64,000 bases of DNA from Candidatus Omnitrophota bacterium (lineage in GTDB: Bacteria > Omnitrophota > Gorgyraeia > JABMRG01): assembly GCA_042577545.1 (NCBI GenBank), contig JBHPDT010000002.1, positions 1,574 through 65,573 of the forward strand. Reading direction: 5' to 3'. Made by a program: the position numbers and the translations under genes. The notes beneath the pieces were generated by a model. It was not told the DNA's origin, searched no databases, and saw only the letters and a program-made list of their open reading frames with translations. Positions 2,020-59,344 of the stretch are shown one piece after another (position 1 is the first letter of the stretch; every line of letters begins with the position of its first letter).

Positions 2020-3372
<1,353 letters not shown>

Positions 3373-3435: not shown

Positions 3436-4869
3436 TTAAATATTCACTATTTGTTTCAAGAAAGAATCTACTATAGCAGATGCCGCCTTCTTCGCCATAC
3501 CCATAGCCTCAATTACCGTACCTTCACCGCCGACTATGTCACCACCAGCATAGACATTTTTCACTGAGGTCTCCATCGTCTCGGAATTTACTGTAATATC
3601 ACCCCATTTATCTGTACTTAGCTCTGGTGTGACGCTAGTAAGAAGTTTGTTTGCCCCTAAGCCTACCGCGATTACAGCCTGATCGCAGTCAGAATCAAAC
3701 TCACTTCCCTTGATCGGGACAGGACGTCTTCTTCCGCTTGAATCTGCTTCGCCAAGCTCACACCTTAGGCACTTAATCTTCTCTACATTACCTTTATCAT
3801 TGCCAAAAAAACCTGTGGGCTGCATCAAAAACTCAAAACTAACACCCTCTTCCTTGGCATGCTCGATCTCAAGTCGTCGCGCTGGCATCTCTACTTCTGT
3901 GCGTCTGTAAAAAATACTGACATCTGGTTTGATATTATTTATCTTCTGTAGCCTTAGCGCAATACGGGCAGCATCCATGGCTGTATTGCCTCCACCGATC
4001 ACCACAATATGTCTGCCAACAGTTACAGGTGTATGATATTCAGGAAATCTATAAGCGCCCATTAGGTTTACACGGGTCAAAAACTCATTCGCGGAATACA
4101 CATTGCAAAGGTTCTCACCATCTATACCCATAAAAGATGGTATGCCAGCGCCAAGACCAAGAAATATCGCAGAATATCCTTCGTCAAATAGTTCAGTTAA
4201 GGTCTTGTTCTTGCCTATTATATAATTTAGTACTATCTCAACACCAAGGCTCTTTACGCAATCTATCTCAAAATCCAATACCTCTTGTGGAAGTCTAAAA
4301 GGCGGAATTCCATATCTCAATACACCACCTGTCTTATGAAGCCCCTCAAATATAGTAACTTTAATTCCGTGTCGAGCCAATTCTCCAGCGCAACATAGAC
4401 CCGCAGGCCCGGCCCCTACCACTGCTACCTTCTTGTCAGATAAACGCTTATCTGCAGAGGCCCCTGTCTCAAGTTTATTATCTTTACCGTAATCGCCTAT
4501 GAATCTTTCTAAAAAGTGGATATTTATCGCTTTCTCAGATGCAAAAGGCTGATCCTTCTTAGTAAAGACACAGACCTTTCTGCATTGATATTCCGCCGGG
4601 CAGACCCTACCGCATATAGATGGGAAATTATTCTTCTCTCTTATGGTAAAATAGGCGCCTTTGTAATCCTTTTGCGTAATCTGGGCAATAAATTTTTTGA
4701 TATCTATTTCAACAGGACACCCCTGTATGCAGGTGGGATCTTTGCATTGAATACAGCGCCCCGCTTCCTGAATCGCCTCATCCTCTGTATATTTTGAGAC
4801 AACCTCTTTGAAGCCGGCTACGCGCTCTAGCGCGTCGAGTTCTTGTGGTCTTACTGCTTCTTTTTTCAT
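3436..4869 (-). CDS. nfnB: GltD-like FAD/NAD(P) oxidoreductase large subunit (NfnB/SudA-like) with an N-terminal 4Fe-4S Cys cluster
   Basis: Cys-rich N-terminus (CIQCKDPTCIQGCP) followed by two GxGxxG dinucleotide-binding motifs. Overlaps the upstream PyrK-like partner by 4 nt. Confidence 0.75.
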   Translation of the reverse strand: MKKEAVRPQELDALERVAGFKEVVSKYTEDEAIQEAGRCIQCKDPTCIQGCPVEIDIKKFIAQITQKDYKGAYFTIREKNNFPSICGRVCPAEYQCRKVCVFTKKDQPFASEKAINIHFLERFIGDYGKDNKLETGASADKRLSDKKVAVVGAGPAGLCCAGELARHGIKVTIFEGLHKTGGVLRYGIPPFRLPQEVLDFEIDCVKSLGVEIVLNYIIGKNKTLTELFDEGYSAIFLGLGAGIPSFMGIDGENLCNVYSANEFLTRVNLMGAYRFPEYHTPVTVGRHIVVIGGGNTAMDAARIALRLQKINNIKPDVSIFYRRTEVEMPARRLEIEHAKEEGVSFEFLMQPTGFFGNDKGNVEKIKCLRCELGEADSSGRRRPVPIKGSEFDSDCDQAVIAVGLGANKLLTSVTPELSTDKWGDITVNSETMETSVKNVYAGGDIVGGEGTVIEAMGMAKKAASAIVDSFLKQIVNI

Positions 4870-5699
4870 AGCAATTTACAGATATGCGCTTCCTTATCCT
4901 GATACTTGCTGGTCCGTTTCTTAAGCTCATCCCAATCGACTATATGGGCATCAAACTCAGGCCCGTCAACACAGCTGAATTTCACCTCATCCCCAATCTT
5001 TACCCTGCAGCAACCGCACATGCCTGTAGCATCGACCATAAGCGCGTTAAGGGATACGAGTGTAGAAACACCATGCTCTTTTGTAATGCCTGCCACCCGC
5101 TCCATCATAGGAATTGGACCTACAGCGTAAACTAGCTTGTAGCTTGTAGCTTGTGGCTTGTGGATAAGTAAATCACCCAATATGTTGGTGGTGAATCCTT
5201 TTTTTCCGTAAGAACCGTCGTCAGTGCAAATTAGCAGCGTATCAGATACCTTCTTTAATTCATCTTCCAAAATCAATATCTCTTTAGTTCTTGCTCCTAA
5301 AATAGTTGTTACATTATTTCCAGCTTCTTTAAGGCCCCGCGCAACTGGAAATATCTCCGCTATCCCAACGCCACCGCCTATTATAATAACACTACCATAG
5401 TCCTTCATCTGGGTCGCGTGGCCCAGGGGACCAACTAACGCATAGAGAGAATCTCCGGCATTAAGCCTGCCTAAAAGCTGGGTTGTGAATCCTAGTTCTT
5501 GAAATATAAGCTTAATAGTCCCTGAAGATAAATTCTTATCAACAACTGTTAAAGGTATCCGTTCGCCTTCTTCGCTTACCATCAGAATAACAAATTGCCC
5601 TGGTAAGGCCTTTGGGGCAATATGAGGCGCTTGGACATCAATCTCGGTTACCCTTGTATCTTTTGTATCGACTAATATTTTTTTATTAAGTATCTTCAT
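4866..5699 (-). CDS. nfnA: PyrK/ferredoxin-NADP reductase-like small subunit (NfnA/SudB-like) with a C-terminal 2Fe-2S Cys motif
   Basis: FAD-binding beta-barrel plus NAD-binding fold, and a C-terminal CGCCRV...C cluster. Translationally coupled to the GltD-like gene. Confidence 0.7.
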   Translation of the reverse strand: MKILNKKILVDTKDTRVTEIDVQAPHIAPKALPGQFVILMVSEEGERIPLTVVDKNLSSGTIKLIFQELGFTTQLLGRLNAGDSLYALVGPLGHATQMKDYGSVIIIGGGVGIAEIFPVARGLKEAGNNVTTILGARTKEILILEDELKKVSDTLLICTDDGSYGKKGFTTNILGDLLIHKPQATSYKLVYAVGPIPMMERVAGITKEHGVSTLVSLNALMVDATGMCGCCRVKIGDEVKFSCVDGPEFDAHIVDWDELKKRTSKYQDKEAHICKLL

Positions 5700-5986: not shown

Positions 5987-8512
5987 TTATCTCTCCTGCT
6001 TAATCTCTTTGCTTTTGTGTCGAAAAGCCTTCCTCCCGACTACAACTATTCCAGCAATAAATAGTAACCAGGATATAATCGATATTATCAGTCCAACCTT
6101 AAAGGATTTAGGGTCGCAATAAAATCTTATTATAGATTCTCCTTCAGGGATAATAACCCCGGAAAAGAGTAGATTAACCCTAAATATATCGACAGGATCT
6201 CCGTTAATAGTACATCTCCACCATGAATGCCATGTATTTGTTGTGCCTAAAACCCTTCTTGAGTCCGAGTTAACCTTTAATTCAATGAGATCGGGCGTAT
6301 CTCTGTTAATAGAAATCCTTTCATTGTCAATGGCTTTAAAGGTTACCTTACGATTCTCTTCTCTAGTCCTGTTTTCGTTTACTAGATATGAAGTCTTACG
6401 AGGGTCATAGGTGTCAACTATCAACGTATTTAATAAATCGTTAACGTTTTGTTTATATACGATAGATGACGGAAAATAAAATCTCGGAGCAACATCCTCT
6501 ACTTCTAAAACCGCTATCTTCTCATCCGCGTATATTTCTTTGTAGTTGTTTTTATAATTATTCATATACCCCCGAATGAACCCGCCGGGTTCTTTTGCTG
6601 AGAATATCAAATATTTTATTGAAAAAAGATTCAGAAACCCTTGAGATATCATAGGGCCGGAAGGCGCGGCTCTAAAAAAGAGTCCGTTTCTTCTAAAAAA
6701 CATAGCATAAAGCAAATTATTATTGGGAACAAGACTGGAGTACCCAGTAACAATAGGTAATCGGCCCAACATATTACCGTCTGGTCCCAATCGAAATATA
6801 TTATCCTTCGCTTCCGCGCCTTCGCAAATTAGCTTTCTGCTGGATCTAAACTCTTCCAGGCCTGAGAGATGATGAATTCTATACTTACTTAAGTCACCAT
6901 CTTTAAGCAAAATCTCGGCAGGGTGCTCTATAGCTACAGAAAGCTCCTTATAATTAATTCCTCGACAAAATGTTTTTTTCCAGAAGCGGAATTGATTATT
7001 TATGTCTGTAAGATCTACGAAGTTGATAACTATTAATACTCCTATAAACACAGATGTCCATTTGGGTTTAATCTTAATAGCAAATAATAGCAGCAGCCCT
7101 ACCAGAAGTATCACGATACCCCTAACTGCTACCCCGCGTAGAATCGGAAAATTTTTCTCAAAAAACGGTTCTGCCTTATCAATCATATCAGCTCTGGCGT
7201 GTACACTCGATACAAAAGATTTTGTAACTGACGGAAACGAAAATAAAACAATAGATACTAAGAAGATAAGCATGACACATATATACCCATTTAACAGTTT
7301 ACGACTGCTTACAATCTTCTCAAGAATTGCAAAGCAGATAATCGCACCCGGCAATATGATAAGATTATTAATGCGACCGTAAGGTACGCCACTTTTAAGA
7401 TTCAGAAAATAAAGCAATCGGATGCCAATAGTCGTGGTTGTCGCTACAACAATAAAGAGATACATCAACCGCCAGAACTTTAACCTGCGTCCCAAAAATA
7501 ATAATCCGTATACAATTGTAACAGCTGCCAACAAACCTTGATAAGTCGTAAATGACTCCACGGTTGACCAGCCATCTCTCCATGTCGGCCACCAACCTAC
7601 GCCCGCGGAAGTGAATATCTTAGGTAGAACTATTCGGATAACATATTGCCAAGGTACTAAGTTATAAGCAACTGATCGCTCCATTGATACACCGACCCTA
7701 AGCTGATCTCCTGTATGCCTTAAATTATCCATGAGCGGCATGAGAAAATAGGAAGAGAGCAACACCGCGTAAAAACACGCGAACGACAAGACCACAAAAA
7801 CTCTTAAGCGAGATCGTACGCTTCCCCCGACAAAAAGTCCATACATAAAATAGATATAAATAGAATATAAACTAAACTGAATAGTACCTTGTGTAAACTG
7901 AATATGAATAAAGAATATAGTGAAAAGTATATCAAGCAGTCGTATGCGGTCTCGTAATCGGTGAATAAAAAACAGTATCCACGGTATAACAGCAAATTGT
8001 ATAGACATAGGATAAAATAAGCCTAACACTGAAATACTTGTCGATGAAACATACATAAGTGCGGCCGCAAACCTGTAAAATTTATTTTCAATCCAATAAC
8101 CCGCCAAGAGAAATAACCCGATTCCAGCCAATATTATCTCCAATAAATAATGTAGCTCCAATAGATACAAAAAATTCTGTTTGCTGGATATGAGCAGAGT
8201 CAATATAACAGTCGGACTGAGAAACATATTAGGATTACCAATCAGTGGCATACCATTCCATATATATGGATTCCAACGTATAATATGGAAATTCTTTATA
8301 CCGTCTCTCAAGAGATCTAGCAGGGGATAATATACCTCAAGCCCATCTTCACTAAAGATTACGTGATGGGGAGATTGCACAAATGTGATATTGGGATATA
8401 CTATTACGCAGATTGCTATAACAAGGCCAATAATCCAAAAAATATTGGGCAAGTTTAATAGCTTTATAAGAAGTTTATTTTGCTGTGGCTCCATGTAACA
8501 ATCCTTACGCAA
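5987..8512 (-). CDS. Large polytopic membrane protein, YfhO-like (glycosyl transfer to cell-envelope polymers)
   Basis: More than 12 predicted TM helices over 841 aa, with a C-terminal extracytoplasmic domain. Lies immediately downstream of a GT2 gene, an arrangement typical of GtrB/YfhO-type pairs. Confidence 0.45.
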   Translation of the reverse strand: MRKDCYMEPQQNKLLIKLLNLPNIFWIIGLVIAICVIVYPNITFVQSPHHVIFSEDGLEVYYPLLDLLRDGIKNFHIIRWNPYIWNGMPLIGNPNMFLSPTVILTLLISSKQNFLYLLELHYLLEIILAGIGLFLLAGYWIENKFYRFAAALMYVSSTSISVLGLFYPMSIQFAVIPWILFFIHRLRDRIRLLDILFTIFFIHIQFTQGTIQFSLYSIYIYFMYGLFVGGSVRSRLRVFVVLSFACFYAVLLSSYFLMPLMDNLRHTGDQLRVGVSMERSVAYNLVPWQYVIRIVLPKIFTSAGVGWWPTWRDGWSTVESFTTYQGLLAAVTIVYGLLFLGRRLKFWRLMYLFIVVATTTTIGIRLLYFLNLKSGVPYGRINNLIILPGAIICFAILEKIVSSRKLLNGYICVMLIFLVSIVLFSFPSVTKSFVSSVHARADMIDKAEPFFEKNFPILRGVAVRGIVILLVGLLLLFAIKIKPKWTSVFIGVLIVINFVDLTDINNQFRFWKKTFCRGINYKELSVAIEHPAEILLKDGDLSKYRIHHLSGLEEFRSSRKLICEGAEAKDNIFRLGPDGNMLGRLPIVTGYSSLVPNNNLLYAMFFRRNGLFFRAAPSGPMISQGFLNLFSIKYLIFSAKEPGGFIRGYMNNYKNNYKEIYADEKIAVLEVEDVAPRFYFPSSIVYKQNVNDLLNTLIVDTYDPRKTSYLVNENRTREENRKVTFKAIDNERISINRDTPDLIELKVNSDSRRVLGTTNTWHSWWRCTINGDPVDIFRVNLLFSGVIIPEGESIIRFYCDPKSFKVGLIISIISWLLFIAGIVVVGRKAFRHKSKEIKQER

Positions 8513-8518
8513 GAAACA

Positions 8519-9985
8519 TTATCTTTTCTTAGAAACTACCGCAAACAGCGTAGTGCCAAAAGGGAACTTAATTCTATCTAAGAGTTTAATTTCAATAGTA
8601 AACCAAAATCTGAGAAACTCATTCAGTATTTTCGGTGGCAGTGTGGTAGTATCACTATGTGGTTTTTTACCAGACACAACCATCCTCCTCAGTAATCTTA
8701 TAGGAGCGACAACTAAAAAAGATATGAAAAAGAAATATCCTAAACGTTCTATCTTAAATCCAGATTCATGCAAATCCGCGCATAGAGATACCTTATCATA
8801 TCTTCTAAAATGACACAAGGCTTCATCATGCTGACTCCATAAAAACGCAAAGGCCGGCACAGTTATTACCATTTTACCATTGTCGCGCATAACCCTTTTA
8901 CATTCGTGCAATACTTCTATCGGATCTGATACGTGCTCCAGTATGTCAAGGCATGTTACAATATCAAATCTAGAATCTTTATAATCCATCTTCTCCGCGG
9001 TAGATCGTAATACATTAGTTATGCCTCTTTCTTTACAAAAACTTACAGCTCGATCTGATACATCAACGCCATGCGCATCTCCAATCTTGTTTAAGGATAA
9101 TAGCGTGCGGCCTGTGCCGGATCCTACATCCAATATTGCGGGAGACTCGGACCTTATCGGGTTCATTAAGCTTAGGGCCAGTCTTCTATGGGAAATGAAC
9201 CACCAGTGGTAGTTTTCCATATTATACATGTACCTGTATTCGTCAGGTCCCATGTATTTATCTGACGTGTTAATCGGAACACAATGCCAATTACGAACCT
9301 GTAATATATTAACGAACATTTTTATCGGATCAGTGAGCACATTGATCTTCGATCCACTGCGATGTCTCCAGGAGACAGGACTCTCAATAATCCTATATCC
9401 CATCTTATGCCCAAGGTATAGGGCTTCGATATCAAAGCCAAACCCATTCAGGTAAATCCTGGAAAAAAGCGGCACTATTACATCTTTCTTAAACATCTTA
9501 AAACCACATTGCGTATCGCTAATATTCTTGAAAAGAAAAAACTGAACAAAGGAATTGAAAACTTTCCCAATAAGTTTCCTATACCATTTTACTTCCAGTG
9601 TCTGGCCCTTATCTTTAAGGACCCTTGAGCCCACAAAGATATCATACCCTTGCTTCAGGAGATAATGGATATTCTTATCTATCTCATCCGGTTGGACCGA
9701 ACCATCAGCATCCATAAAAACGCGTAGCTCACCGGTAGCTTTAAGCATACCCCTTTTGACAGCATAGCCTTTTCCATGGTTCCTATCAATCTTGACTAGC
9801 TGGAGATTTTTGAATCTTTTTGCGTATGAGATAACTACTGCTTCAGTCTTATCAGCGCTACCATCATCAACCACTATTATCTCGGATTTTCTTTTAGAGT
9901 TATTGCAATAAGAGATGACCTGCTCGAGAAATTGCGGGAGTCTTTTTTCTTCATTATAGGCAGGAATTATAATAGATAAATCCAT
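8519..9985 (-). CDS. Family 2 glycosyltransferase (polyprenyl-phosphate sugar transferase type) fused to a C-terminal class I SAM-dependent methyltransferase
   Basis: N-terminal IIIPAYNEE...VVDDGSADKT...DADG, a GT2 DxD signature. C-terminal LDVGSGTGRT...FDIVTCLDILEHV is SAM-MTase motif I/II. Confidence 0.7.
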   Translation of the reverse strand: MDLSIIIPAYNEEKRLPQFLEQVISYCNNSKRKSEIIVVDDGSADKTEAVVISYAKRFKNLQLVKIDRNHGKGYAVKRGMLKATGELRVFMDADGSVQPDEIDKNIHYLLKQGYDIFVGSRVLKDKGQTLEVKWYRKLIGKVFNSFVQFFLFKNISDTQCGFKMFKKDVIVPLFSRIYLNGFGFDIEALYLGHKMGYRIIESPVSWRHRSGSKINVLTDPIKMFVNILQVRNWHCVPINTSDKYMGPDEYRYMYNMENYHWWFISHRRLALSLMNPIRSESPAILDVGSGTGRTLLSLNKIGDAHGVDVSDRAVSFCKERGITNVLRSTAEKMDYKDSRFDIVTCLDILEHVSDPIEVLHECKRVMRDNGKMVITVPAFAFLWSQHDEALCHFRRYDKVSLCADLHESGFKIERLGYFFFISFLVVAPIRLLRRMVVSGKKPHSDTTTLPPKILNEFLRFWFTIEIKLLDRIKFPFGTTLFAVVSKKR

Positions 9986-10005
9986 AAATGATCTTTCGAT
10001 GAAAC

Positions 10006-10494
10006 CTAGGATACAAGTAATAATCTGGTAATCGCGGCTGCTGCTTTTTTGGCCATAATTACAGTGCCCTCTCCACCTACAATGTCGCCACCAGCATAGA
10101 CTCCTTGAATAGAGGTCTTCATTGTATTAGGATCTACAGTAATATCGCCCCATTTATCGGTTTTTAGGCCTGGGGTAACACTTGTAAGTAGCTTGTTCGC
10201 GCCAAGGCCTACTGCGATCACAGCCTGATCGCACTCTGCCTCAAAGTCACTGCCTATAATAGGCACTGGCCTTCTTCTACCACTTGAATCTGGCTCACCA
10301 AGTTCACATTTGAGCAATCTTATCTTCTGAACGCACCATTTCTCATCCCCGCCGAACCCAGTTGGCTGAATCAGAAACTCAAATTTAACGCCCTCTTCTT
10401 TTGCCATCACAACCACAAACTGTCCTGGCAAGACCTTGGGGGCAATGTGAGGCGCCTCTACCTCGATCATTGTAGATCTGGGGTTTTGTTGCAC
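10006..10494 (-). pseudogene. In-frame deletion remnant of a second nfnAB-like copy: the first ~37 codons of nfnA fused to the last ~125 codons of nfnB
   Basis: The N-terminus MIEVEAPHIAPKVLPGQFVVVMAKEEG matches the NfnA N-terminus. The rest (FEFLIQPTGF...CELGEPDSSGRRRPVPI...AVIAVGLGANKLLTSVTP...GGDIVGGEGTVI) matches the NfnB C-terminus. The junction sits at a shared EEG microhomology. Confidence 0.6.
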
Positions 10495-10545
10495 CTGTTA
10501 TGATCTGTTTTTTGAGGATCTTCATAGTAAACGTTCATGATAGTT

Positions 10546-10640
10546 ATCCCCCCTTGATTTCTTTGAAATCAAAACAGGGGGGATAAATTCGCACTTATGA
10601 GTTATGTCATATTCCATATGACATAACTCATGTGCTCATT
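10546..10640. repeat. R-family composite repeat, copy R1: C/G palindrome plus TAAATTCGCAC-hairpin-GTGCTCATT
   Basis: ATCCCCCCTTGATTTCTTTGAAATCAAAACAGGGGGGAT followed by CACTTATGAGTTATGTCATATTCCATATGACATAACTCATGTG. Abuts the glnA copy-1 stop codon. Confidence 0.65.
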
Positions 10641-11959
10641 TACAGTATTGCTAAATACTTATCGAGCTCGTGCTTGGTCACCTGTTTTTTGTATTCGTTC
10701 CACTCATCCTTCTTATTGCGGATGAAGTATTCGAATACCTTATCACCAAGCGCCTTACGCACAAGCTTACTTTGCTCAGTTATCTTTACCGCGTCATAGA
10801 GATCATCTGGAAGAGATTCTATACCTACCATCTCTCTCTCCTCTGCGGTCATGCGATAGATATTGTTGGTAACTTGAGCTGGAAGTTTATATTTTTTCTT
10901 AATGCCCTCTAAGCCAGCTGCGAGCATAACACTGAAAGCGAGATATGGATTACACGCTGGGTCCGGATTTCTCATCTCAACGCGAGTTGCGTTCTCTTTG
11001 CCAGGTTTATACATCGGAACTCTTACTAAAGCAGAGCGATTGCGTTGCGCCCATGAAACATAGACAGGAGCCTCGTAACCTGGTATCAATCTCTTGTAAG
11101 AATTTACCCATTGACAACAGATTGAACAGATCTCGCGGGCATGCTTAAGTAGCCCCGCGGTAAAATACTTCGCGGTCTGTGAAAGATGATACTTATCATT
11201 CTTATCAAAAAACGCATTCCTCTTGCCTTTAAACAAAGACATATGAGTATGCATACCGCTTCCATTAATACCATATATCGGCTTTGGCATGAATGTAGCG
11301 TACATATTCTTCTGCATAGCAACCTCTTTAACAATCATCCGATACGCCATCACATTATCAGCCATCTTTAGGGCCTCATTATAACGCAGATCTATCTCAT
11401 GCTGGGATGAGGCAACCTCATGGTGCCAATATTCAACTTGAATCCCCATCTTCTCAAGAGCAAGTACTGTCTTTCTGCGAAGGTCCTGACCTATATCCAT
11501 AGGTGTCAGATCAAAATAGCCGCCGCGATCAAGTATCTCAGTGCCTTCTGAATTTCTAAAATAAAAATACTCTAGCTCTGGCCCGACATTAAATGTATAC
11601 CCGAGAGCCTTTGCCTCAGCCAAATTCTTCTTTAAGACATTCCTAGGATCGCCATCAAACGCCTTCCCGCCTGGCTCAACCACATTACAGAACATACAAG
11701 CAATGGGTCCTTCCTCTTGCTCAAAGGGAAGAATTCGGAACGTCTTGGTATCAGGTTTAACCACCATATCAGATTCTTCAATTCTCGAAAAACCCTCTAT
11801 AGATGAGCCATCAAATCCCATGCCATCAGCAAGAGCATGAGGAAGTTCTTCAACAGGAATATCAAAACTCTTTAAAAAACCAAGCACGTCTGTAAACCAT
11901 AAACGCACAAAAGCTATCTTCTTCTTCTTTACCAGCTTGAGTATCTCTTTGCTTGTCAT
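10640..11959 (-). CDS. glnA: Glutamine synthetase (type I-alpha-like), copy 1
   Basis: GS beta-grasp and catalytic domains, conserved across the full length. The true start is probably the internal ATG at 11959 (MTSKEILKLV), which has an AAGGAG RBS. The ORF-track start at 12076 lies inside a repeat element. Confidence 0.85.
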   Translation of the reverse strand: MTSKEILKLVKKKKIAFVRLWFTDVLGFLKSFDIPVEELPHALADGMGFDGSSIEGFSRIEESDMVVKPDTKTFRILPFEQEEGPIACMFCNVVEPGGKAFDGDPRNVLKKNLAEAKALGYTFNVGPELEYFYFRNSEGTEILDRGGYFDLTPMDIGQDLRRKTVLALEKMGIQVEYWHHEVASSQHEIDLRYNEALKMADNVMAYRMIVKEVAMQKNMYATFMPKPIYGINGSGMHTHMSLFKGKRNAFFDKNDKYHLSQTAKYFTAGLLKHAREICSICCQWVNSYKRLIPGYEAPVYVSWAQRNRSALVRVPMYKPGKENATRVEMRNPDPACNPYLAFSVMLAAGLEGIKKKYKLPAQVTNNIYRMTAEEREMVGIESLPDDLYDAVKITEQSKLVRKALGDKVFEYFIRNKKDEWNEYKKQVTKHELDKYLAIL

Positions 11960-12020
11960 AGTAACACTCCTTGTATAAGGGTTATTATTAAAGTGGTATA
12001 GATTATATACAAACATGCCT

Positions 12021-12087
12021 AAAAAAACAAGTAAAATGTTCGCATAACTTATGGAGTAAGTGAAACGAACGAACATAAGTTATATGC
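12021..12087 (-). terminator. Hairpin plus U-run (attenuator-like) within the glnA copy-1 leader
   Basis: In minus-strand sense, GCATA(TA)ACTTATG ... CATAAGTTATGC forms a ~12-bp stem with a 20-nt loop, followed by CGAACAUUUUACUUGUUUUUUU. It lies ~70 nt upstream of the glnA ATG at 11959. Confidence 0.35.
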
Positions 12088-15512: not shown

Positions 15513-16958
15513 TTATATCAGCGGTAAATTGCTATTACCCATCAGATACCTGTCTATGTAATGGGCGCAGCTGCGGGCCTCTGATATGGCCCATACAACA
15601 AGTGACTGTCCGCGCCTCATATCACCGCAAGAGAACACTTTTTTAACAGACGTCATGTAATCTCTCCCTGTCTTTATATTGCCGCGCTCATCAAAAGCGA
15701 CCTTGAGATCAGTGAGCAGGCCTGAGTGTTCAGGATGTAAAAACCCCACAGCAAGAATAACCAGATCTGTCTCAATTTCAAACTCGCTTCCCGAAATCTC
15801 TCTTATAACAGGGCAGGCCTTTGCATCTTGTTGTGTAAACTCTGCCTTCACGCATGATAATTTCTTAACAACTCCCTTTTCTCCGATAAAACTCTTTGTC
15901 AAGACCGCCCAATGGCGCTCCCCTCCTTCTTCATGGCTGGAGGATACTTTTAATAGCAGAGGATATTGAGGCCATGGAAAGTCTGCGTTGCGACATTCCG
16001 AAGGTTTAGGCATAACCTCTATCTGCACAACACAAGAGGCCCCTTGCCTGTGTGCGGTTCCCACACAGTCAGCGCCTGTATCACCTCCTCCTATAACAAC
16101 GACCTTTTTTGACTTTGCGTCTATAATATCATTTGAGGCGATCTTCTCGCCACCGAGTCTCCTGTTTACCTGACAAAGGTAATCCATTGCAAAATATATG
16201 CCTTTTAGGCCTCTTCCCTCTATCTTAAGATCTCTCGGAACTCGGCAACCGCCTGCCAAACAGATCGCATCAAACTCATCCAGAAGTTTCTTAACCGCAT
16301 AATCTACTCCCACATCCACACCTGTATTAAAAACAACGCCTTCTTTTTTCCAGATATCAACACGTCTGTCTATAAGGTTTTTCTCAAGCTTAAAATCAGG
16401 GATACCATAACGCAATATCCCGCCTGGATTATTATCCCTCTCAAATACCACAACACTGTGGCCTGCTCTGTTAAGCTGTGCTGCGGCTGATAATCCCGCC
16501 GGGCCTGAGCCTACAACAGCCACCTTTTTTCCTGTCCTGTGCCTTGGCAGGTTCGGTTTAATCAAATCATTATTAAAAGCATACTCTACAACCGCAAGTT
16601 CATTTTCACGGATGGTCACAGCATCATCATTTATACCTAATACACACGAATATTCACATAGCGCTGGACATACCCGCCCTGTTATTTCAGGTAAGTTATT
16701 CGTGGCCTCAAGCAGGCTAATCGCCTCTTTCCATCTTCCGTTGAACATATAGTCGTTCCATTCGGGGATATAGTTTCCTATCGGACAGCTCCAATGACAA
16801 AACGGCGTAGCGCAGTCCATACATCGCGAGGCCTGCTCCTGTGATTGTTCCTGGGGATGTGGTTGACAGACATGCCTGAAATCCTGAATACGCTCACAGA
16901 TCCCTCTGTATTTTGCATCCTGTCTTGCGACCTTTAAAAAACCTCGCGGATTACCCAT
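15513..16958 (-). CDS. gltD: Glutamate synthase small (beta) subunit
   Basis: N-terminal Cys cluster plus GxGxxG FAD/NADPH motifs. Overlaps gltB by 8 nt. Confidence 0.85.
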   Translation of the reverse strand: MGNPRGFLKVARQDAKYRGICERIQDFRHVCQPHPQEQSQEQASRCMDCATPFCHWSCPIGNYIPEWNDYMFNGRWKEAISLLEATNNLPEITGRVCPALCEYSCVLGINDDAVTIRENELAVVEYAFNNDLIKPNLPRHRTGKKVAVVGSGPAGLSAAAQLNRAGHSVVVFERDNNPGGILRYGIPDFKLEKNLIDRRVDIWKKEGVVFNTGVDVGVDYAVKKLLDEFDAICLAGGCRVPRDLKIEGRGLKGIYFAMDYLCQVNRRLGGEKIASNDIIDAKSKKVVVIGGGDTGADCVGTAHRQGASCVVQIEVMPKPSECRNADFPWPQYPLLLKVSSSHEEGGERHWAVLTKSFIGEKGVVKKLSCVKAEFTQQDAKACPVIREISGSEFEIETDLVILAVGFLHPEHSGLLTDLKVAFDERGNIKTGRDYMTSVKKVFSCGDMRRGQSLVVWAISEARSCAHYIDRYLMGNSNLPLI

Positions 16959-19900
16959 CAGACGCCTCCACTAAGTTGAGTTTCTCCTCAACCTTTATCC
17001 CTTCCAATATGCGCTTATACTCAATGGGTATAACCTTTACGAACTTCTTCAGTTCCTCATACATATTATCGATAATCCTTCTTGCCTTTTCACTCTGCGT
17101 ATATTTGAAATGGTTATGGAGTAGATGATATATTGTATCCTTGTCCTCTTCCTTTGCCTCCTCTAACTCAACCATATCCATATTACACCTGTCTTTGAAG
17201 GCGCTGCCTTCATCATAGACATAAGCTATTCCGCCTGACATGCCTGCAGCAAAATTCCTTCCTGTCTTTCCAAGGACAATTACCCTTCCGCCTGTCATAT
17301 ATTCACAACCATGATCACCAAGACCCTCGACAACGGCATAGAGTCCGGAGTTTCTGATACAGAACCGCTCACCTGCAATGCCGCGTATATATGCCTCCCC
17401 GGATATGGCCCCGTAAAAAGTGGTATTGCCGATAATTATATTTTCATCGGGCTTATAAGAGGCCTTCTTATCCGGATATATAATAATTTTCCCCCCGGAG
17501 ATGCCCTTGCCAACATAATCATTCGCCATACCCTCTAATTCAAAGGTAACGCCTTTTGCAAGAAAGGCGCCGAAACTCTGTCCGGCAATTCCCCTGAATT
17601 TAGTGCATATGGTATCTTCCAAAAGTACGCCGTCACCACACCTCCTCGATATCTCACCGCTTAACATAGCGCCTGTAGTCCTGTTTGTATTATTGATCTC
17701 TACTGAAATATTCGTCGGTTTATTCTCATTAAGGGCAGCTTCACACATCCCAATAAGCTTTTTATCAAAAACAGAATCCAGCTTGTTCTTCTGCGCGGAT
17801 ACGCAGTATCGCCTGACATCCTCAGGGAGATCCGGCTTATAGAGAATCTTTGAATAATCTATACCCTTTGCCTTTAAGGGGATGATATCGCTGTTTGCCT
17901 CAAGGAGATCTGTTCTTCCTATCATATCGTTTATATTTCTCATGCCCAGGCTTGCCATTATCTCGCGAAGTTCCTGAGCCACAAAATGAAAATAATTCAC
18001 AATATATTCCGGCCTTCCCTTAAATCGCTTCTGCAGGATCTTATCCTGTGTGGCAACGCCAATCGAGCAGTTATTTAAATGGCAGTGCCTTAGCATAACA
18101 CAGCCTATGGTGATAAGAACGGATGTGCAGAAACCATATTCTTCAGCACCTAACAAGGCAGCGATTGCAATATCACGACCCGTGCGCATTTGACCGTCGG
18201 CCTGTATGCGGACCCTTGAGCGAAGGTTATTGAGCATTAGTGTCTGATGCGTCTCAGAAAGCCCCAACTCCCACGGAAGCCCGGCGTATCTTATAGAGCT
18301 CCTGGGAGAAGCGCCCGTTCCCCCGTCTCCGCCGGAGATAAGGATCATGTCAGCATGGCCCTTGGCAACTCCGGCTGCGACAGTTCCAACCCCAGCCTCT
18401 GAAACAAGCTTTACGCTAACACGCGCCTGCGGATTAGCATTCTTAAGATCAAAGATAAGCTGAGCAAGGTCTTCTATAGAATATATATCATGGTGCGGAG
18501 GCGGCGATATCAGTGTGACACCCTGGGTAGTGTATCTGGTTCGCGCGATTATTTCACTCACCTTATGCCCTGGCAGTTGACCGCCCTCGCCTGGTTTAGC
18601 GCCCTGGGCAATCTTTATCTGTATCTCATCGGCATTGACAAGATAGTTTATAGTCACACCAAACCTTCCCGAGGCAACCTGCTTTATAGCACTCCTTCTT
18701 GAATCTCCATTGGGCAGTTTTATAAACCTGCTAGGATCTTCGCCACCCTCGCCGGTATTGGACTTTCCGCCTATCCTGTTCATAGCGATCGCGATCGTCT
18801 CATGCGCCGGGCTTGAAATTGAGCCAAAGCTCATGGCACCTGTTGCAAAGCGCTTCATGATATCTTCAACAGGCTCAACCTCGTTAATGGAGATAGTCTG
18901 CCTCTTGCCAGGTAAATCGCCTACGTCTTTAAACCTAAGCAGGCTCCTTAGTGTCGTAGGATTGGCTGACTGATCATTTATCATCTGGGAGAATTCCCTG
19001 TATCTATCATAGTCATTGTTGCGCGCGCAATCCTGCAAGGCTGCTATGCTCTCAGGATTCCAGAGATGAAACTCTCCATCCTTTTTCCATTGATAGACAC
19101 CGCCGCTTGTTAAACAGGTAGTTCCACCTTCTCTCTCGGGATATGCCTTGGCATGCCTTTTTATAGTCTCATCCGCTATTCCCTCAAGACTAACTCCCCC
19201 TATCCTGGATATAGTACCGGTAAAACACCTGCCTATAAGCTCATCATCCAATCCTAATGCCTCAAATATCTGTGCCCCACGGTAACTTCTAAGAGTAGAT
19301 ATACCCATCTTTGAGAGTATCTTCAATATGCCGTCCCCTATGGCCTTGTTAAAATTCTTCAAGGCGCTTTTTAAATCTAAATGGATCTCTTTATTCTCTA
19401 TAAGATATTCTATCGTCTCATGAGCGAGATAGGGGTTTACGCAGCCTGCGCCGTATCCGAAAAGGAGGGCAAAATGGTGCACCTCTCTGGGCTCCGCACT
19501 TTCAACTATTATTGCTACTTCAGAGCGTATGGTCTTTCTCACAAGGTGTTGATGAACAGCACTTGTGGCCAAAAGCGCCGGGAGGGCAATGTTATCTTTA
19601 TCAACGCCACGGTCGCTCAATATCACAAAAGAGTATCCCTGTTCAATGGCATACTCCGCTTCAAAACAGATCCTCTCTAATGCGCGCGAAAAACCTTCCT
19701 TGCCATTCTGTGAGTCAAAAAAAGTGTATATAGTCTTTGTCTTAAATCCGTTTATGCTTATATCACGTATCTTCTCAAGCTCTTCATCCGTCAATATAGG
19801 ATTTCTTACTCTAAGCTTATGGCTATGTTCTGGAGTCTCCTCCAAGATATTCTTCTCAGGACCTATGAAGCTCTCAAGACTCATCACAAGCCTTTCCCTA

Positions 19901-21534
19901 ATGGAGTCTATGGCAGGGTTGGTCACCTGGGCGAATAGCTGTTTAAAATAGCTATAGAGAATCTGGGGCTTTTTTGATAAAAAGGCATGGGGTATATCAC
20001 TGCCCATTGAGCCCACAGGCTCTTTGCCTTCCTGCGCCATCGGCTTGATAATCATATTAAGGTCTTCGCGCGAGTAACCAAAGGCCTTGAGAAGAGAGGT
20101 AATATCCTCAGATCTCTTATTGGCGCCTGCTGCGCTGATAAGCTTATCCAGGTCGACAATGTTCTTCTCATTCCATTCTCCGTATGGATAGCGGGCAGAT
20201 GCCCCCTTTTTTATCTCACTGTCTTCTATTATGCCTCCTGATTCGGTATCGATTAAAAAGATCTTGCCAGGTTCAAGCCTCCCGGAAATCTTGATATTTG
20301 CGGGATCTATATCAAGAACGCCAACCTCAGAGGCCATAACCACAAAATCGTCCTTAGTCACAATGTAGCGAGCCGGACGCAGACCGTTTCTGTCAAGTAC
20401 CGCACCAATATTCTTTCCGTCAGTAAAAGCTATAGCAGCTGGTCCATCCCACGGCTCCATGAAACAGGCGTGATATTTGTAAAAATCCTTGAGCTCTTTG
20501 CTCATAAAACTATTATGCTCCCAAGCCGCTGGAATAAGCATCATCATAGCGTGCTCAATTGATCTGCCGGATAAGACCAGAAGCTCTAAGACGTTATCAA
20601 TGACAGCTGAATCACTTCCTCCTTCAACAATAACAGGTTTTAGCTTTTCCATGTCTGTGCCAAATACTTCGCTTGTCATTATGCGCTCTCTGGCCCGCAC
20701 CCAATTTACATTGCCGCGCAATGTATTTATCTCCCCGTTATGGGCAAGAAAACGAAAAGGTTGAGCAAGATCCCATGTGGGAAAGGTATTGGTGCTGTAC
20801 CGAGAATGGACCAGGCAAAGAGAGCTCTGGATAGATTCATCCTTTAGGTCAGGAAAAAACTCCCTCAGTTGAGAGGGCATCAAAAGTCCCTTATAACTCA
20901 ACGTCCTGCAAGAGAGGTTTGTAATATAGAAAAAATATCTCTGCTCTATGGAAGATGACTTAACGCAATTTTCAATCTGTTTGCGAATAATATAAAGCTT
21001 TCTCTCAAATTGCAGCGTGTCTTTTAAGCCCTTACTTCTGCCTATGAATATCTGGCATATATACGGCATCATATCCCGCGCACCCTTACCGATGACCAAA
21101 CTGTTCACAGGAACTTTGCGCAAGCCCAAAAACTGCTGGCCTTCTTCATTGACGACCTTTCTAAACAGGTCTATGCAAGAGTTTCTATCTCTGTCATCTT
21201 GTGGAAGAAAAACCAATCCGGTTCCGTAAGATCCAGATTCGGGCAAGGAGATGTCTGCTTCTTTGCATTCTTTCAGCAAAAACTCATGCGGCATCTGGAT
21301 CAGTATGCCAGCGCCGTCTCCTGTCTGTGGATCAACCCCAACAGCGCCACGATGGCTTAGGCGCTCAAGCACCTCTATGCCTTTCTTTACTATATCGTAG
21401 GATCGCTTTGCGTTTATATTACAGACAAACCCGACACCGCAGCTATCATGCTCAAACCGCGGATCGTATAATCCCTGTTTTGTAGGTAAATGTTTGTATC
21501 TCATTTTGTATTCGTCATTGTAGCCCCGTATCAA
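16951..21534 (-). CDS. gltB: Glutamate synthase large subunit (amidotransferase, FMN, and C-terminal GXGXG domains)
   Basis: CGVGFV amidotransferase N-terminus, FMN/3Fe-4S central domain and C-terminal glycine-rich domain. The track start at 21534 is a TTG; the first ATG is at 21504. Confidence 0.9.
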   Translation of the reverse strand: MIRGYNDEYKMRYKHLPTKQGLYDPRFEHDSCGVGFVCNINAKRSYDIVKKGIEVLERLSHRGAVGVDPQTGDGAGILIQMPHEFLLKECKEADISLPESGSYGTGLVFLPQDDRDRNSCIDLFRKVVNEEGQQFLGLRKVPVNSLVIGKGARDMMPYICQIFIGRSKGLKDTLQFERKLYIIRKQIENCVKSSSIEQRYFFYITNLSCRTLSYKGLLMPSQLREFFPDLKDESIQSSLCLVHSRYSTNTFPTWDLAQPFRFLAHNGEINTLRGNVNWVRARERIMTSEVFGTDMEKLKPVIVEGGSDSAVIDNVLELLVLSGRSIEHAMMMLIPAAWEHNSFMSKELKDFYKYHACFMEPWDGPAAIAFTDGKNIGAVLDRNGLRPARYIVTKDDFVVMASEVGVLDIDPANIKISGRLEPGKIFLIDTESGGIIEDSEIKKGASARYPYGEWNEKNIVDLDKLISAAGANKRSEDITSLLKAFGYSREDLNMIIKPMAQEGKEPVGSMGSDIPHAFLSKKPQILYSYFKQLFAQVTNPAIDSIRERLVMSLESFIGPEKNILEETPEHSHKLRVRNPILTDEELEKIRDISINGFKTKTIYTFFDSQNGKEGFSRALERICFEAEYAIEQGYSFVILSDRGVDKDNIALPALLATSAVHQHLVRKTIRSEVAIIVESAEPREVHHFALLFGYGAGCVNPYLAHETIEYLIENKEIHLDLKSALKNFNKAIGDGILKILSKMGISTLRSYRGAQIFEALGLDDELIGRCFTGTISRIGGVSLEGIADETIKRHAKAYPEREGGTTCLTSGGVYQWKKDGEFHLWNPESIAALQDCARNNDYDRYREFSQMINDQSANPTTLRSLLRFKDVGDLPGKRQTISINEVEPVEDIMKRFATGAMSFGSISSPAHETIAIAMNRIGGKSNTGEGGEDPSRFIKLPNGDSRRSAIKQVASGRFGVTINYLVNADEIQIKIAQGAKPGEGGQLPGHKVSEIIARTRYTTQGVTLISPPPHHDIYSIEDLAQLIFDLKNANPQARVSVKLVSEAGVGTVAAGVAKGHADMILISGGDGGTGASPRSSIRYAGLPWELGLSETHQTLMLNNLRSRVRIQADGQMRTGRDIAIAALLGAEEYGFCTSVLITIGCVMLRHCHLNNCSIGVATQDKILQKRFKGRPEYIVNYFHFVAQELREIMASLGMRNINDMIGRTDLLEANSDIIPLKAKGIDYSKILYKPDLPEDVRRYCVSAQKNKLDSVFDKKLIGMCEAALNENKPTNISVEINNTNRTTGAMLSGEISRRCGDGVLLEDTICTKFRGIAGQSFGAFLAKGVTFELEGMANDYVGKGISGGKIIIYPDKKASYKPDENIIIGNTTFYGAISGEAYIRGIAGERFCIRNSGLYAVVEGLGDHGCEYMTGGRVIVLGKTGRNFAAGMSGGIAYVYDEGSAFKDRCNMDMVELEEAKEEDKDTIYHLLHNHFKYTQSEKARRIIDNMYEELKKFVKVIPIEYKRILEGIKVEEKLNLVEASDG

Positions 21535-22123: not shown

Positions 22124-23656
22124 TTATGTAATCGCTAAGTATTTATCCAACTCACACTCAGGGACCTGAATTCTATACTCATTCCATTCCTTCTTCTTCA
22201 ACTCGATAAACCTTGAGAAGATGTGATCACCTAGAGTCCTCTTGACTAAGCTGCTCTTCTCTGTAATTGATATAGCATGACCAAGGCTATCAGGAAGCGT
22301 ATCTATGCCCTGTTTTTTCCTCTCAGAATCTGTCAGATGATATAGATTTGTCTCCATAGCCTTAGGAGCTTTATACTTCTTCTCAATACCATCAAGCCCT
22401 GCTTGAAGCATAGCCGCAAATGTCAGATATGGATTACATGCTGGATCTGCTGCTCTGAATTCGCATCTAGTCGCCTTTTCCTGACCTGGGTGATATAAAG
22501 GAACTCTGACTAAAGCGCTCCTATTTCTTCTTGACCAAGCTATATATACAGGGGCCTCATACCCAGGAACTAATCTCTTATAAGAGTTTGTTGTCTGAGC
22601 GAATATGGAGCAGATCTCTTTTGAGTGCTTCAATAATCCCGCGATATACTGGCGCGCGGTATCAGATAGAAAATCACTAGACTTTGGATCATGAAACGCG
22701 TTCTTATCTCCCTTAAAGAGAGACTGGTGTGTATGCATGCCAGAACCATTCTGACCAAAAATAGGCTTAGGCATGAATGTAGCATATACTCCAAACTTGC
22801 TCGCTATCTCCTTTACAACAACTCTATATGTAATCACATCATCTGCCATCTTTAAGGCATCATCATAACGCATATCTACCTCATGCTGTGATGGAGCAAC
22901 CTCATGATGGGAATATTCAACATGTATACCCATCTGCTCAAGAGCAAGTACTGTCTCGCGCCTGAGATCGCTGGCAACATCAAGTGTTGTAAGATCAAAG
23001 TAGCCGCCCTTATCGAGAATCTCCGTACCTTCATCATTCTTAAAATAGAAGAACTCTAGTTCAGGACCAAGATAAAAGTGGTCAAACCCCATCTTTTTGG
23101 CTCTCTGTAGAGCTCTCTTTAAGACATAACGAGGATCACCTTCATATGGTTTCCTGTCCGGTGTAAGGATATCGCAGATCATCCTAGCTACCGCCTTCTC
23201 CTTAGGTCTCCACGGAAGCAGAGAAAACGTATTAGGATCTGGCATAGCTATCATATCTGATTCTTCAATATCCTGATAACCTGTTATTGAAGAACCATCA
23301 AATCCCATTCCATTCTCAAGAGCGTTCTTGAGCTCTACGTCTGTAATTGAAAAACTCTTTACCTGCCCCAAGAGATCTGTAAACCAGAGACGAATAAACT
23401 TAACATCATTATCCTTTACTAGTTTAAGCACGTCCTCTTTTGTCTTTCTTCCCTTGGTGCCCTTTGCGCTGACCTTCGTCGGTCTTTTTGCTGTTGCTAC
23501 TGGTGTCATTTTTGTACCCTCACTTTCTTTTTTTGCCCAATAAAATACAAAACGCCCAACATCATCTACTATGACATTGAACGTCCTCGTTCCTATGCTA
23601 TTTTTGCACAAACCTTGTGCTTTATTGCTTACACTTCTCTGGTATCTTGTATTCAT
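22124..23656 (-). CDS. glnA: Glutamine synthetase copy 2 with a ~70-aa basic N-terminal extension
   Basis: GS domains conserved from KEDVLKLVKDNDVKFIRLWFTD onward. The extension contains TPVATAKRPTKVSAKGTKGRKTK. An alternative start at the internal Met (MTPVATAK) is possible. Confidence 0.85.
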   Translation of the reverse strand: MNTRYQRSVSNKAQGLCKNSIGTRTFNVIVDDVGRFVFYWAKKESEGTKMTPVATAKRPTKVSAKGTKGRKTKEDVLKLVKDNDVKFIRLWFTDLLGQVKSFSITDVELKNALENGMGFDGSSITGYQDIEESDMIAMPDPNTFSLLPWRPKEKAVARMICDILTPDRKPYEGDPRYVLKRALQRAKKMGFDHFYLGPELEFFYFKNDEGTEILDKGGYFDLTTLDVASDLRRETVLALEQMGIHVEYSHHEVAPSQHEVDMRYDDALKMADDVITYRVVVKEIASKFGVYATFMPKPIFGQNGSGMHTHQSLFKGDKNAFHDPKSSDFLSDTARQYIAGLLKHSKEICSIFAQTTNSYKRLVPGYEAPVYIAWSRRNRSALVRVPLYHPGQEKATRCEFRAADPACNPYLTFAAMLQAGLDGIEKKYKAPKAMETNLYHLTDSERKKQGIDTLPDSLGHAISITEKSSLVKRTLGDHIFSRFIELKKKEWNEYRIQVPECELDKYLAIT

Positions 23657-58436: not shown

Positions 58437-58447
58437 AAGATACCTAT

Positions 58448-58687
58448 CTATGCGCTTAACACATCTACCTTCTTTGTGCCAAACTTTACAATACCGCTAA
58501 TCTTCGCAAATAGCGTATAATCTCTTCCCATGCCCACGTTGATTCCAGGCTTAAATTTTGTGCCTTTTTGACGAATTATTATGCCGCCGGCCTTAATAAT
58601 TTGTCCACCAAATTTCTTAACCCCAAGCCGCTGGGCATTGCTATCTCTACCATTACGACTGGAGCCTTGTGATTTTGTATGTGCCAT
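58448..58687 (-). CDS. rpmA: 50S ribosomal protein L27
   Basis: [28 protein letters not shown] is a canonical L27 N-terminus. Confidence 0.9.
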
Positions 58688-58766
58688 TGTAAACCTCGTT
58701 TTTTTGTTATTTTATTTGCAATTTGCCATATGCTATTTGCAATTTACCCTACTTTTATATCCTTTC

Positions 58767-58857
58767 AATGAGGTCACAACTTATGGAACGAAGTGACGTA
58801 AGTTGTATGACCGAATTGATCCCCCCTGCTTTGATTTTGAAAAAATCAAGGGGGGAT
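58767..58857. repeat. R-family composite repeat in reverse orientation (copy R6) between rplU and rpmA
   Basis: ACAACTTATGGAACGAAGTGACGTAAGTTGT hairpin plus the palindrome ATCCCCCCTGCTTTGATTTTGAAAAAATCAAGGGGGGAT. Both are also found in R1 at 10546..10640. Confidence 0.6.
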
Positions 58858-58860
58858 ATA

Positions 58861-59169
58861 TTACCCAACTTTTATATCCTTAACTTTTATACGCGTAAGC
58901 ATATCTCGGTGCCCTATCTTCCTGTGATAGCTTTTTCTTCTCTTAAACTTAAACGCTATCTTCTTCTCACCTTTAAGCTCACCGACTATATCGCAGACTA
59001 CTTTAGCATTCTTTACATACGGAGTTCCGATATTCACATCCTTACCTGAAGAGGTAACTAGAACCTTATCAACTGAAAATTCTTTCTTCTTATCTATTCT
59101 GGGTATATCGAATACATCGCCGACCTTAACTTCGTACTGTTTTGACGCAAGTTCAATTATAGCAAACAC
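58861..59169 (-). CDS. rplU: 50S ribosomal protein L21
   Basis: MFAIIELASKQYEVKVGDV is a canonical L21 sequence. Confidence 0.9.
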   Translation of the reverse strand: MFAIIELASKQYEVKVGDVFDIPRIDKKKEFSVDKVLVTSSGKDVNIGTPYVKNAKVVCDIVGELKGEKKIAFKFKRRKSYHRKIGHRDMLTRIKVKDIKVG

Positions 59170-59255
59170 TTGATCTCACTCCTCTCATTAATTTTAAGTC
59201 CCTAAGTATATCATATATAGATATATATGGCAAGGAAAAAAACACTTGAAAAATA

Positions 59256-59338
59256 AGTAACCAGTTGCCAGTTGCCAGAAACCAGAAAAAACGTGTATTT
59301 AAACTAATCTGGTTACTGGTTACAGGTTTCTGGTTACT
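59256..59338. repeat. W-family palindromic repeats (GGTTTCTGGTTAC) upstream of rplU
   Basis: Same motif as 21958..22122. Confidence 0.6.
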
Positions 59339-59344
59339 TAGTAT

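Follow-up and report, generated by a model that had tools for sequence, protein, structure and literature searches.

Probable non-functional remnant of a second nfnA-nfnB operon beside glnA in a Candidatus Omnitrophota metagenome-assembled genome

The stretch analyzed here, referred to as the window, comprises 64,000 nucleotides (nt) of a metagenome-assembled genome (MAG) of a Candidatus Omnitrophota bacterium (contig JBHPDT010000002.1, positions 1,574 to 65,573). On its minus strand, next to the glutamine synthetase gene glnA, lies a 162-codon open reading frame (ORF; 10006..10494) that starts with GTG at 10494 and ends with TAG at 10006-10008, as listed in the first-pass annotation of this DNA. 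NCBI annotates the same ORF as a protein of 154 amino acids (aa) from an ATG at 10470, under the name 'FAD-dependent oxidoreductase' (P0001). We call this ORF the remnant, in anticipation of the interpretation given below. It was compared with an intact operon on the same strand (3436..5699), in which nfnA (4866-5699) and nfnB (3436-4869) overlap by 4 nt in different frames and are followed by the NADP-specific gdhA. Intact NfnB matched T. maritima NfnAB (large subunit, 4YLF_B, E 2.6e-136) and P. furiosus NfnI (5JCA_L, E 4e-125), and intact NfnA matched 5JCA_S (E 4e-87) and 4YLF_A (E 4e-76).

BLASTn analysis of the entire interval that separates glnA from the following gene (9986..10640, minus strand) against the intact operon revealed two significant high-scoring segment pairs (HSPs) in all, which were collinear with the operon. 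HSP 1 paired window positions 10468..10389 with nfnA nt 57-136 (62/80, 78% identity, E 6e-14), and HSP 2 paired 10404..10057 with operon nt 1842-2189, equivalent to nfnB codons 338-454 (255/348, 73%, E 2e-57). The nucleotide matches therefore reach nfnA codons 19-45 and nfnB codons 338-454; including the native start described below, the remnant region covers 10525..10006 on the minus strand. A separate repeat search of the window found the same remnant/operon repeat. At the protein level, BLASTP aligned remnant residues 31-160 with NfnB 338-471 (74% identity, E 2e-66) and residues 3-66 with NfnA 13-70 (E 9e-13), of which only residues 9-35 (equivalent to NfnA 19-45) are truly NfnA-like. The first-pass annotation had described an in-frame deletion fusion of nfnA and nfnB, the fossil of a second nfn operon, with about 37 initial residues from the N-terminus of NfnA and the remainder from the C-terminal end of NfnB. 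The collinear HSPs, the BLASTP alignments and the synteny in relatives bear out the fusion, the collinearity of its halves with the corresponding parts of nfnA and nfnB, and its NfnB portion. On the NfnA side, residues 9-35 agree with the description, but the first eight residues come from nfnA codons read in the wrong frame.

The in-frame nfnA-derived piece (MIEVEAPHIAPKVLPGQFVVVM, 10405..10470, minus strand) corresponds to NfnA codons 19-40; across these 22 codons, it agrees with intact nfnA at 76% of nucleotides and 73% of residues. The nfnB-derived piece (10009..10404, minus strand) corresponds to NfnB codons 338-477, that is, the end of the NADPH domain and the C-terminal FAD 'GD' segment. 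The deletion junction is marked by the 16-nt overlap of the two HSPs (GCAAAAGAAGAGGGCG, 10389..10404, minus strand), which encodes AKEEG; the sequence spanning it reads …GQFVVVMAKEEGVKFEF…. These 16 nt were identical to intact nfnA (nt 121-136) at 11/16 positions and to nfnB (operon nt 1842-1857) at 13/16, the parental copy itself being gone. At this site intact nfnA encodes VSEEG and intact nfnB AKEEG. Since the orthologous NfnA of the relatives L002 and L019 reads VKEEG, the parental copy may have had KEEG as the peptide shared at the junction. The junction at a shared EEG, as first proposed, is real and can be widened in this way, and its position at shared (K)EEG codons would fit a short-homology deletion. 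The offset between the HSPs indicates that about 1721 nt are gone from the remnant relative to the intact operon, and because the two genes overlap by 4 nt in different frames, an offset of 1721 nt joins the nfnA frame to the nfnB frame.

Further lesions were found on both sides of the junction. The native nfnA start and its first eight codons (MKILKKQI; 10502..10525, minus strand) are present, with ATG at 10525 followed by AAGATCCTCAAAAAACAGATC, and lie +1 out of frame with the ORF; the corresponding N-termini are MKILNKKI in intact NfnA and MKILSKKT in the L002 orthologue. ATG 10525 is located 31 nt upstream of GTG 10494 in the other frame, which ends after 46 codons (TAA 10387-10385), and the frame of the ORF is closed by TAA 10500-10498 two codons before GTG 10494. 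The +1 insertion would most likely have occurred in an A4C4 run at 10480..10487 (minus strand), where removal of one base gives MKILKKQIITGATKPRSTMIEVEAPH / MKILKKQIITGATKPRSTMIEVEAPHIAPK, equal in length to the orthologous N-termini. Because the native ATG has been frameshifted out, both the 162-aa ORF and the NCBI version of 154 aa begin at non-native starts. No Shine-Dalgarno-like sequence was found before GTG 10494 or ATG 10470, many genes in the window having GGAG-type sites, and a simple sigma-70 promoter and terminator scan of 9800-10800 detected nothing on the minus strand. Conservation in the nfnB-derived piece was assessed with an alignment of 111 NfnB sequences. A 12-nt in-frame deletion at 10056..10057 (minus strand) has removed EAMG, four columns conserved in at least 95% of these sequences, from GGEGTVIEAMGMAKKAA, and Trp53 (TGG, 10336..10338, minus strand) occupies a position where at least 95% of them have Gly.

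The remnant descends from an operon of the same kind as the intact genes at 3436-5699, which are clear members of the NfnAB family, and it lacks the features by which that family is recognized. Pfam analysis matched it only to positions 191-289 of the 291-position Pyr_redox_2 profile, and with the NCBIfam model TIGR01316 (NADPH-dependent Fe-S flavoprotein, large Nfn subunit) it scored 112.6 bits, below the cut-off of 471.75 that intact NfnB exceeded (524.8). Fer4_20, which holds two [4Fe-4S] clusters and lies at residues 17-131 of intact NfnB (E 7e-37), had no match in the remnant; the region falls inside the 1721-nt deletion. The FAD GxGxxG motif (VAVVGAGPAG) and the NADPH Rossmann motif (IGGGNTAMD), at residues 147-157 and ~290-299 of intact NfnB, are both missing because the remnant starts at the equivalent of NfnB residue 338. 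In the C-terminal FAD segment VYAGGDIVGGEGTVI is kept and the EAMG of the conserved TVIEAMG is deleted, leaving the NfnB motif incomplete. With NF004862 (PyrK-like FAD/NAD-binding [2Fe-2S] subunit) intact NfnA scored 359.4 bits against a cut-off of 220, and the remnant gave no NfnA-family match. All Fe-S ligands are gone, as is all of NfnA except the 22 in-frame codons 19-40, so that the FAD barrel, the NAD domain and the DHODB Fe-S domain, and with them the NfnA cofactor sites, are absent. An open frame and a glycine-rich FAD/NAD motif had been noted in the first-pass annotation; the frame is indeed open over 162 codons, but the surviving motif (VYAGGDIVGG) is the C-terminal GD motif and not a dinucleotide-binding GxGxxG. 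Because it has no Fe-S ligands and neither Rossmann GxGxxG motif, the remnant, judged by its sequence, could not act as an enzyme. The gltD product of the window (15513-16958) shares superfamily and domain order with NfnB, TIGR01316 being named for homotetrameric GltA, and the remnant matches GltD models weakly. As a parent of the remnant it was ruled out, since it fits TIGR01317 (glutamate synthase (GOGAT) small subunit, 615 bits) and is encoded beside gltB, whereas the remnant is 74% identical to NfnB.

A search of 5.8 billion proteins with the remnant returned the MAG's own annotation as the sole identical match, followed by NfnB sequences at 64-74% identity. Five matches with 96% coverage (P0002, P0013, P0058, P0065, and P0068) were considered as conserved fusions and rejected, as they are NfnB fragments with a spurious N-terminal alignment. 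A degenerate junction pattern had no match in metagenome contigs, and no NfnA-NfnB junction occurred among 80 remnant-related metagenome loci: 77 of them match from remnant residue 25 onwards, L111 and L117 start later, and the L113 match (residues 11-159, 47% identity) falls within its full-length nfnB. A stand-alone C-terminal NfnB family was likewise rejected, with P0012 and P0117 representing contig-end fragments and L081, L082, and L168 broken full-length genes. Because the short NfnB-like proteins are contig-end fragments or frame-disrupted genes, we conclude from these searches that no family of such small fusion proteins appears to exist. The interrupted NfnB genes contain an in-frame TAA at ~7917, in a Lys codon position (L081), a frameshift in a C-run at ~8000 (L082), and a frameshift at ~2160-2190 (L168); either errors of assembly or independent decay could account for them.

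Codon comparison of the remnant with intact nfnB over 130 aligned codons gave identities of 0.83, 0.89, and 0.40 at positions 1, 2, and 3, respectively, with a non-synonymous divergence (dN) of 0.184, a synonymous divergence (dS) of about 2.5, which is saturated, and a dN/dS of 0.07. Orthologue pairs across Omnitrophota species showed dN values of 0.18-0.26 and position-3 identities of 0.31-0.45, from which the remnant/intact pair was indistinguishable. Values like those of cross-species orthologues imply that nearly all of the divergence built up with both copies under purifying selection, and the codon pattern marks the parent of the remnant as a working, anciently diverged gene whose inactivation appears to be comparatively recent. 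The remnant departs from the NfnB consensus at 1 of its 42 retained near-invariant positions; functional sequences showed ~1.2 departures on average. By our own estimate, which takes each unit of neutral divergence to bring ~2.25 non-synonymous hits per codon, neutral drift since inactivation would amount to roughly 5% per site or less. Simulated neutral drift left the ORF open in 46% of runs when divergence was 5% and in 23% when it was 10%. The earlier description of the duplication as old holds for the divergence of the copies, but the trees described below do not decide between duplication and transfer, and the deletion itself seems comparatively recent.

To compare the locus with those of relatives, we used GlnA as a probe, with the closest species representatives showing 76-87% identity, and read gene order where the contigs allowed. 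Wherever it could be read, relatives carried a single nfnAB inside a nitrogen-assimilation cluster, and this comparison, which the first-pass annotation had suggested, revealed that nfnAB normally lies between glnA and gdhA. The orders were glnA-icd-nfnA-nfnB-gdhA-carB in L002 (GlnA 84-85% and GdhA 85% identical), glnA-icd in L001, nfnA-nfnB-icd-glnA-(GAF-ANTAR)-gdhA in L006, nfnA-nfnB-glnA-gdhA in L019, L025, and L096, glnA-(GAF-ANTAR)-nfnA-nfnB-gdhA in L089 and L091-L093, and nfnA-nfnB-gdhA in L087, L088, L090, L095, and L097 (then carB in L095). The window reads glnA-(two hairpins)-remnant-GT2/methyltransferase-YfhO-like-nfnA-nfnB-gdhA-(MNT/HEPN-like pair), with the ancestral position relative to glnA held by the remnant and that relative to gdhA by the intact copy. 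The remnant and the intact operon are separated by a block on the minus strand (5987..9985) that consists of a glycosyltransferase (GT) gene, GT2 plus methyltransferase (8519-9985), and a gene for a YfhO-like membrane protein (5987-8512). In other Omnitrophota, GT homologues, at most 66% identical, sit in envelope-glycosylation clusters, and in none of the three contexts read did they lie beside nfn or glnA. Because these homologues lie in envelope-glycosylation clusters elsewhere, the 4-kb GT/YfhO block between the copies is a local novelty.

In view of these results, the locus is very probably the inactive leftover (pseudogene) of a second nfnA-nfnB operon. It combines clear similarity by descent to a working gene with a large deletion, a frameshifted start and the loss of conserved motifs, and the disrupted form was found in no other genome searched. 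On this reading the remnant is an ordinary decaying deletion pseudogene and not a new kind of gene. Some observations weigh against it. The frame of 162 codons is open, yet this is weak evidence either way and uninformative alone, because the simulations often leave the ORF open. The good conservation of the retained part would agree with recent selection too. Finally, the +1 frameshift adjoins short homopolymer runs in a MAG; if it were an assembly error, the native start would be kept and a product of ~172 aa could be translated.

We consider it very unlikely that the chimeric ORF encodes a functional protein of 154-172 aa, be it a shortened flavoprotein module, a subunit binding NfnA/NfnB in a decoy or regulatory role, or an upstream open reading frame (uORF) coupled to translation of the GT gene. 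The GT gene, which starts 20 nt past the remnant stop and has no Shine-Dalgarno-like sequence of its own, would suit such coupling, and the open 162 codons, the 41/42 near-invariant residues kept in the NfnB segment and the NCBI annotation as a protein can also be cited in its favor. However, translation from the native start would run in the wrong frame, no ribosome-binding site precedes the candidate starts, EAMG has been lost and Trp has taken the place of a conserved Gly. Neither Rossmann motif remains, nor do the Fe-S ligands or more than a small part of NfnA; very large databases hold no second example, and a young pseudogene can be expected to have an open frame by chance. The suggestion in the first-pass annotation that the remnant could be expressed as a small protein is unsupported on the same grounds, the fusion having been found in no other genome or metagenome searched. 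Reuse of the remnant, whether as a translated uORF that would drive translation of the GT/YfhO-like genes with a promoter from the old nfnA 5' region or as a modulator that would bind the intact Nfn subunits, seems even less probable. Least credible to us is an artefact in which the metagenome assembler itself created the junction as a chimeric join. The source is a MAG and the exact annotated 154-aa protein was found on no other contig, both of which can be cited for such a join, but the remnant differs from the intact copy by 22-27% and so is not its collapsed repeat. In addition, the stretch common to both sides of the junction, at most 16 nt long and imperfect, would be too short to mislead a k-mer assembler, and both flanks run into well-conserved genes at normal spacing.

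To examine where the two copies came from, we constructed neighbor-joining bootstrap trees of the C-terminal part of NfnB, full-length NfnB, NfnA, GdhA, and the concatenated remnant pieces. The trees were star-like and placed the remnant next to the intact copy with only 17-36% bootstrap; GdhA grouped with L002 at 100%, and intact NfnB with L002 at 4%. The nfnA piece of the remnant was 76% identical at the nucleotide level to the intact copy versus at most 67% to orthologues, and the nfnB piece 71% versus 65-68%. GC content, overall and at third codon positions (GC3), was typical of the window in the remnant, the intact copy and the GT/YfhO block alike and gave no native/foreign distinction.

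Duplication and acquisition appear about equally likely as origins, and we hold each of them only tentatively. In an ancient in-lineage duplication both copies would have been functional for a long time, the GT/YfhO block would have been inserted between them, and one copy would have been lost recently. The sister position of remnant and intact copy would agree with this, weak as its bootstrap values are, as would the intact copy being the closest sequence to the remnant in 41% of bootstrap replicates, the highest nucleotide identity of all pairs, and one copy at each end of the ancestral cluster; yet the statistical support is weak, BLASTn found no flanking homology beyond the coding regions, and the scenario would need long co-existence of both copies together with independent loss, or no duplication, in all sampled relatives. 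The single nfnAB in the cluster of each relative examined is more easily accommodated by xenologous displacement, in which one nfnAB would have arrived by horizontal transfer from another Omnitrophota lineage, possibly with the GT/YfhO block, and the redundant copy on the glnA side would have decayed. Transfer would also fit copies as divergent as orthologues of different species, the 4% bootstrap of intact NfnB with L002 against 100% for GdhA, and the position of the GT gene outside its usual genomic context, but not the window-typical GC and GC3, the star-like trees, or the nominally closest match of the remnant to the resident intact copy in both pieces. P. furiosus reportedly has two Nfn paralogues, NfnI and NfnII/Xfn, and PDB entry 5VJ7 was among the structure matches. 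Organisms with two paralogues indicate that two functional nfn operons can co-exist, a state that, by the selection pattern, this genome once had; unlike the P. furiosus pair, the second operon here was destroyed, and there is no sign that the copies differed in function.

The pseudogene would have arisen from a state with two working nfnAB copies within the ammonium-assimilation cluster (glnA ... nfnAB ... gdhA), one of which became redundant. An illegitimate short-homology deletion would then have taken out ~1.7 kb between (V/A)-K-E-E-G codons occurring once in nfnA and once in nfnB, with the loss of NfnA codons ~41-277 and NfnB codons 1 to ~337. Deletion between short direct similar stretches that leaves one copy at the junction is classic for replication slippage or RecA-independent illegitimate recombination, and either would be a likely route here. 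The frames would have been joined by chance (1 in 3), and with a prior of one third, selection need not be invoked for the in-frame outcome. Later events would have been the +1 frameshift behind the native start, the 12-nt EAMG deletion and the Gly-to-Trp change. Because there is no room for a promoter of its own, the GT gene must, as we infer, depend on transcripts that come from glnA or the old nfnA 5' region and pass through the remnant, which today likely serves only as a transcribed leader for the GT/YfhO-like genes behind it.

The remnant resembles bacterial pseudogenes formed by deletion at short direct repeats in its internal deletion with breakpoints that appear to fall in a short common stretch ((V/A)KEEG codons), its later small indels, its confinement to one genome, and the presence of a redundant paralogue. 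Unlike the usual case, its deletion crosses two adjacent genes and fuses them in frame, which yielded a plausible ORF that was annotated as a protein. The automatic name 'FAD-dependent oxidoreductase' was a result of this in-frame deletion, and the entry merits a pseudogene flag. The remnant records one moment in the loss of a paralogue in an uncultured, streamlined phylum and marks a point of rearrangement in the ammonium-assimilation cluster conserved in Omnitrophota (glnA, icd or GAF-ANTAR, nfnAB, gdhA, carB); it has no bearing on any long-standing open question.

Across relatives, the recurring cluster comprises glnA, icd or a GAF-ANTAR regulator, nfnA-nfnB, NADP-specific gdhA and often carB (L002, L006, L019, L025, and L087-L097). 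Such gene linkage would fit a role of NfnAB in supplying NADPH to the NADP-specific glutamate dehydrogenase for ammonium assimilation, and the cluster is possibly under ANTAR-type RNA control. The upstream neighbor of the remnant, glnA, encodes a type I glutamine synthetase (10640..11959, minus strand) whose homologues all align from the Met at 11959 (439 aa). The longest ORF at this position starts at 12076 (10640-12076, 478 aa); an AAGGAG site precedes Met 11959, and the 39-residue extension is probably untranslated. The spacer from the glnA stop to the old nfnA start (10526..10639, minus strand) contains two strong hairpins where relatives have a whole gene, icd or the GAF-ANTAR regulator, and no such gene or remains of one were found in the window.

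The first of these hairpins is a perfect palindrome of 16+16 nt (ATGAGTTATGTCATAT / ATATGACATAACTCAT) with a 3-nt spacer at 10597-10631, 9 nt past the glnA stop; it was rejected as a classic intrinsic terminator because it has no T-run. The second is a ~40-nt palindromic hairpin with C6/G6 ends, ATCCCCCCTG(T/C)TTTGATTT…AAATCAAGGGGGGAT (also given as ATCCCCCCTG…CAAGGGGGGAT), present in two copies in the window, at 10546-10584 in the glnA/remnant spacer and at 58819-58857 in the intergenic region 58437-59344, the latter between genes that by eye appear to encode ribosomal proteins L21 and L27. Another hairpin plus GAATT precedes each C6/G6 copy. No copy was found in 166 fetched loci, and none is expected by chance; the element may be a small repeat of repetitive extragenic palindromic (REP)-like or terminator-like type. 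The 120-nt spacer with the palindrome and the C6/G6 hairpin folds at -53.5 kcal/mol (z = -9.7). ANTAR targets are dual short hexaloop hairpins, and the two hairpins, with long stems and 3-nt loops, were rejected as such a target by eye. Rfam analysis of the whole window gave no match.

The GT gene encodes a ~490-aa fusion of GT2 with an S-adenosylmethionine (SAM)-dependent methyltransferase that is widespread in Omnitrophota, with 814 proteins at E<=1e-30 and a best non-self match of 66% identity. The YfhO-like membrane protein (841 aa) matched the C-terminal part of YfhO only weakly (E 2.6e-4), short of the Pfam cut-off. Downstream of intact nfnB, gdhA (2020-3360) is directly followed by a pair of genes (963-1936), in which an NTP_transf_2 nucleotidyltransferase gene (1358-1936) overlaps a gene for 132 aa without a Pfam match (963-1361). 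The pair sits where L002 and L095 have carB and looks like an MNT/HEPN-type toxin-antitoxin system with a putative HEPN component. Nitrogen-assimilation genes are dense in the window, with two glnA paralogues (62% identical), a gltB-gltD pair, gdhA and nfnAB (10640-11959, 15513-21534, and 22124-23656). Further along, a single ORF of 3314 aa occupies 27557-37501 on the minus strand.

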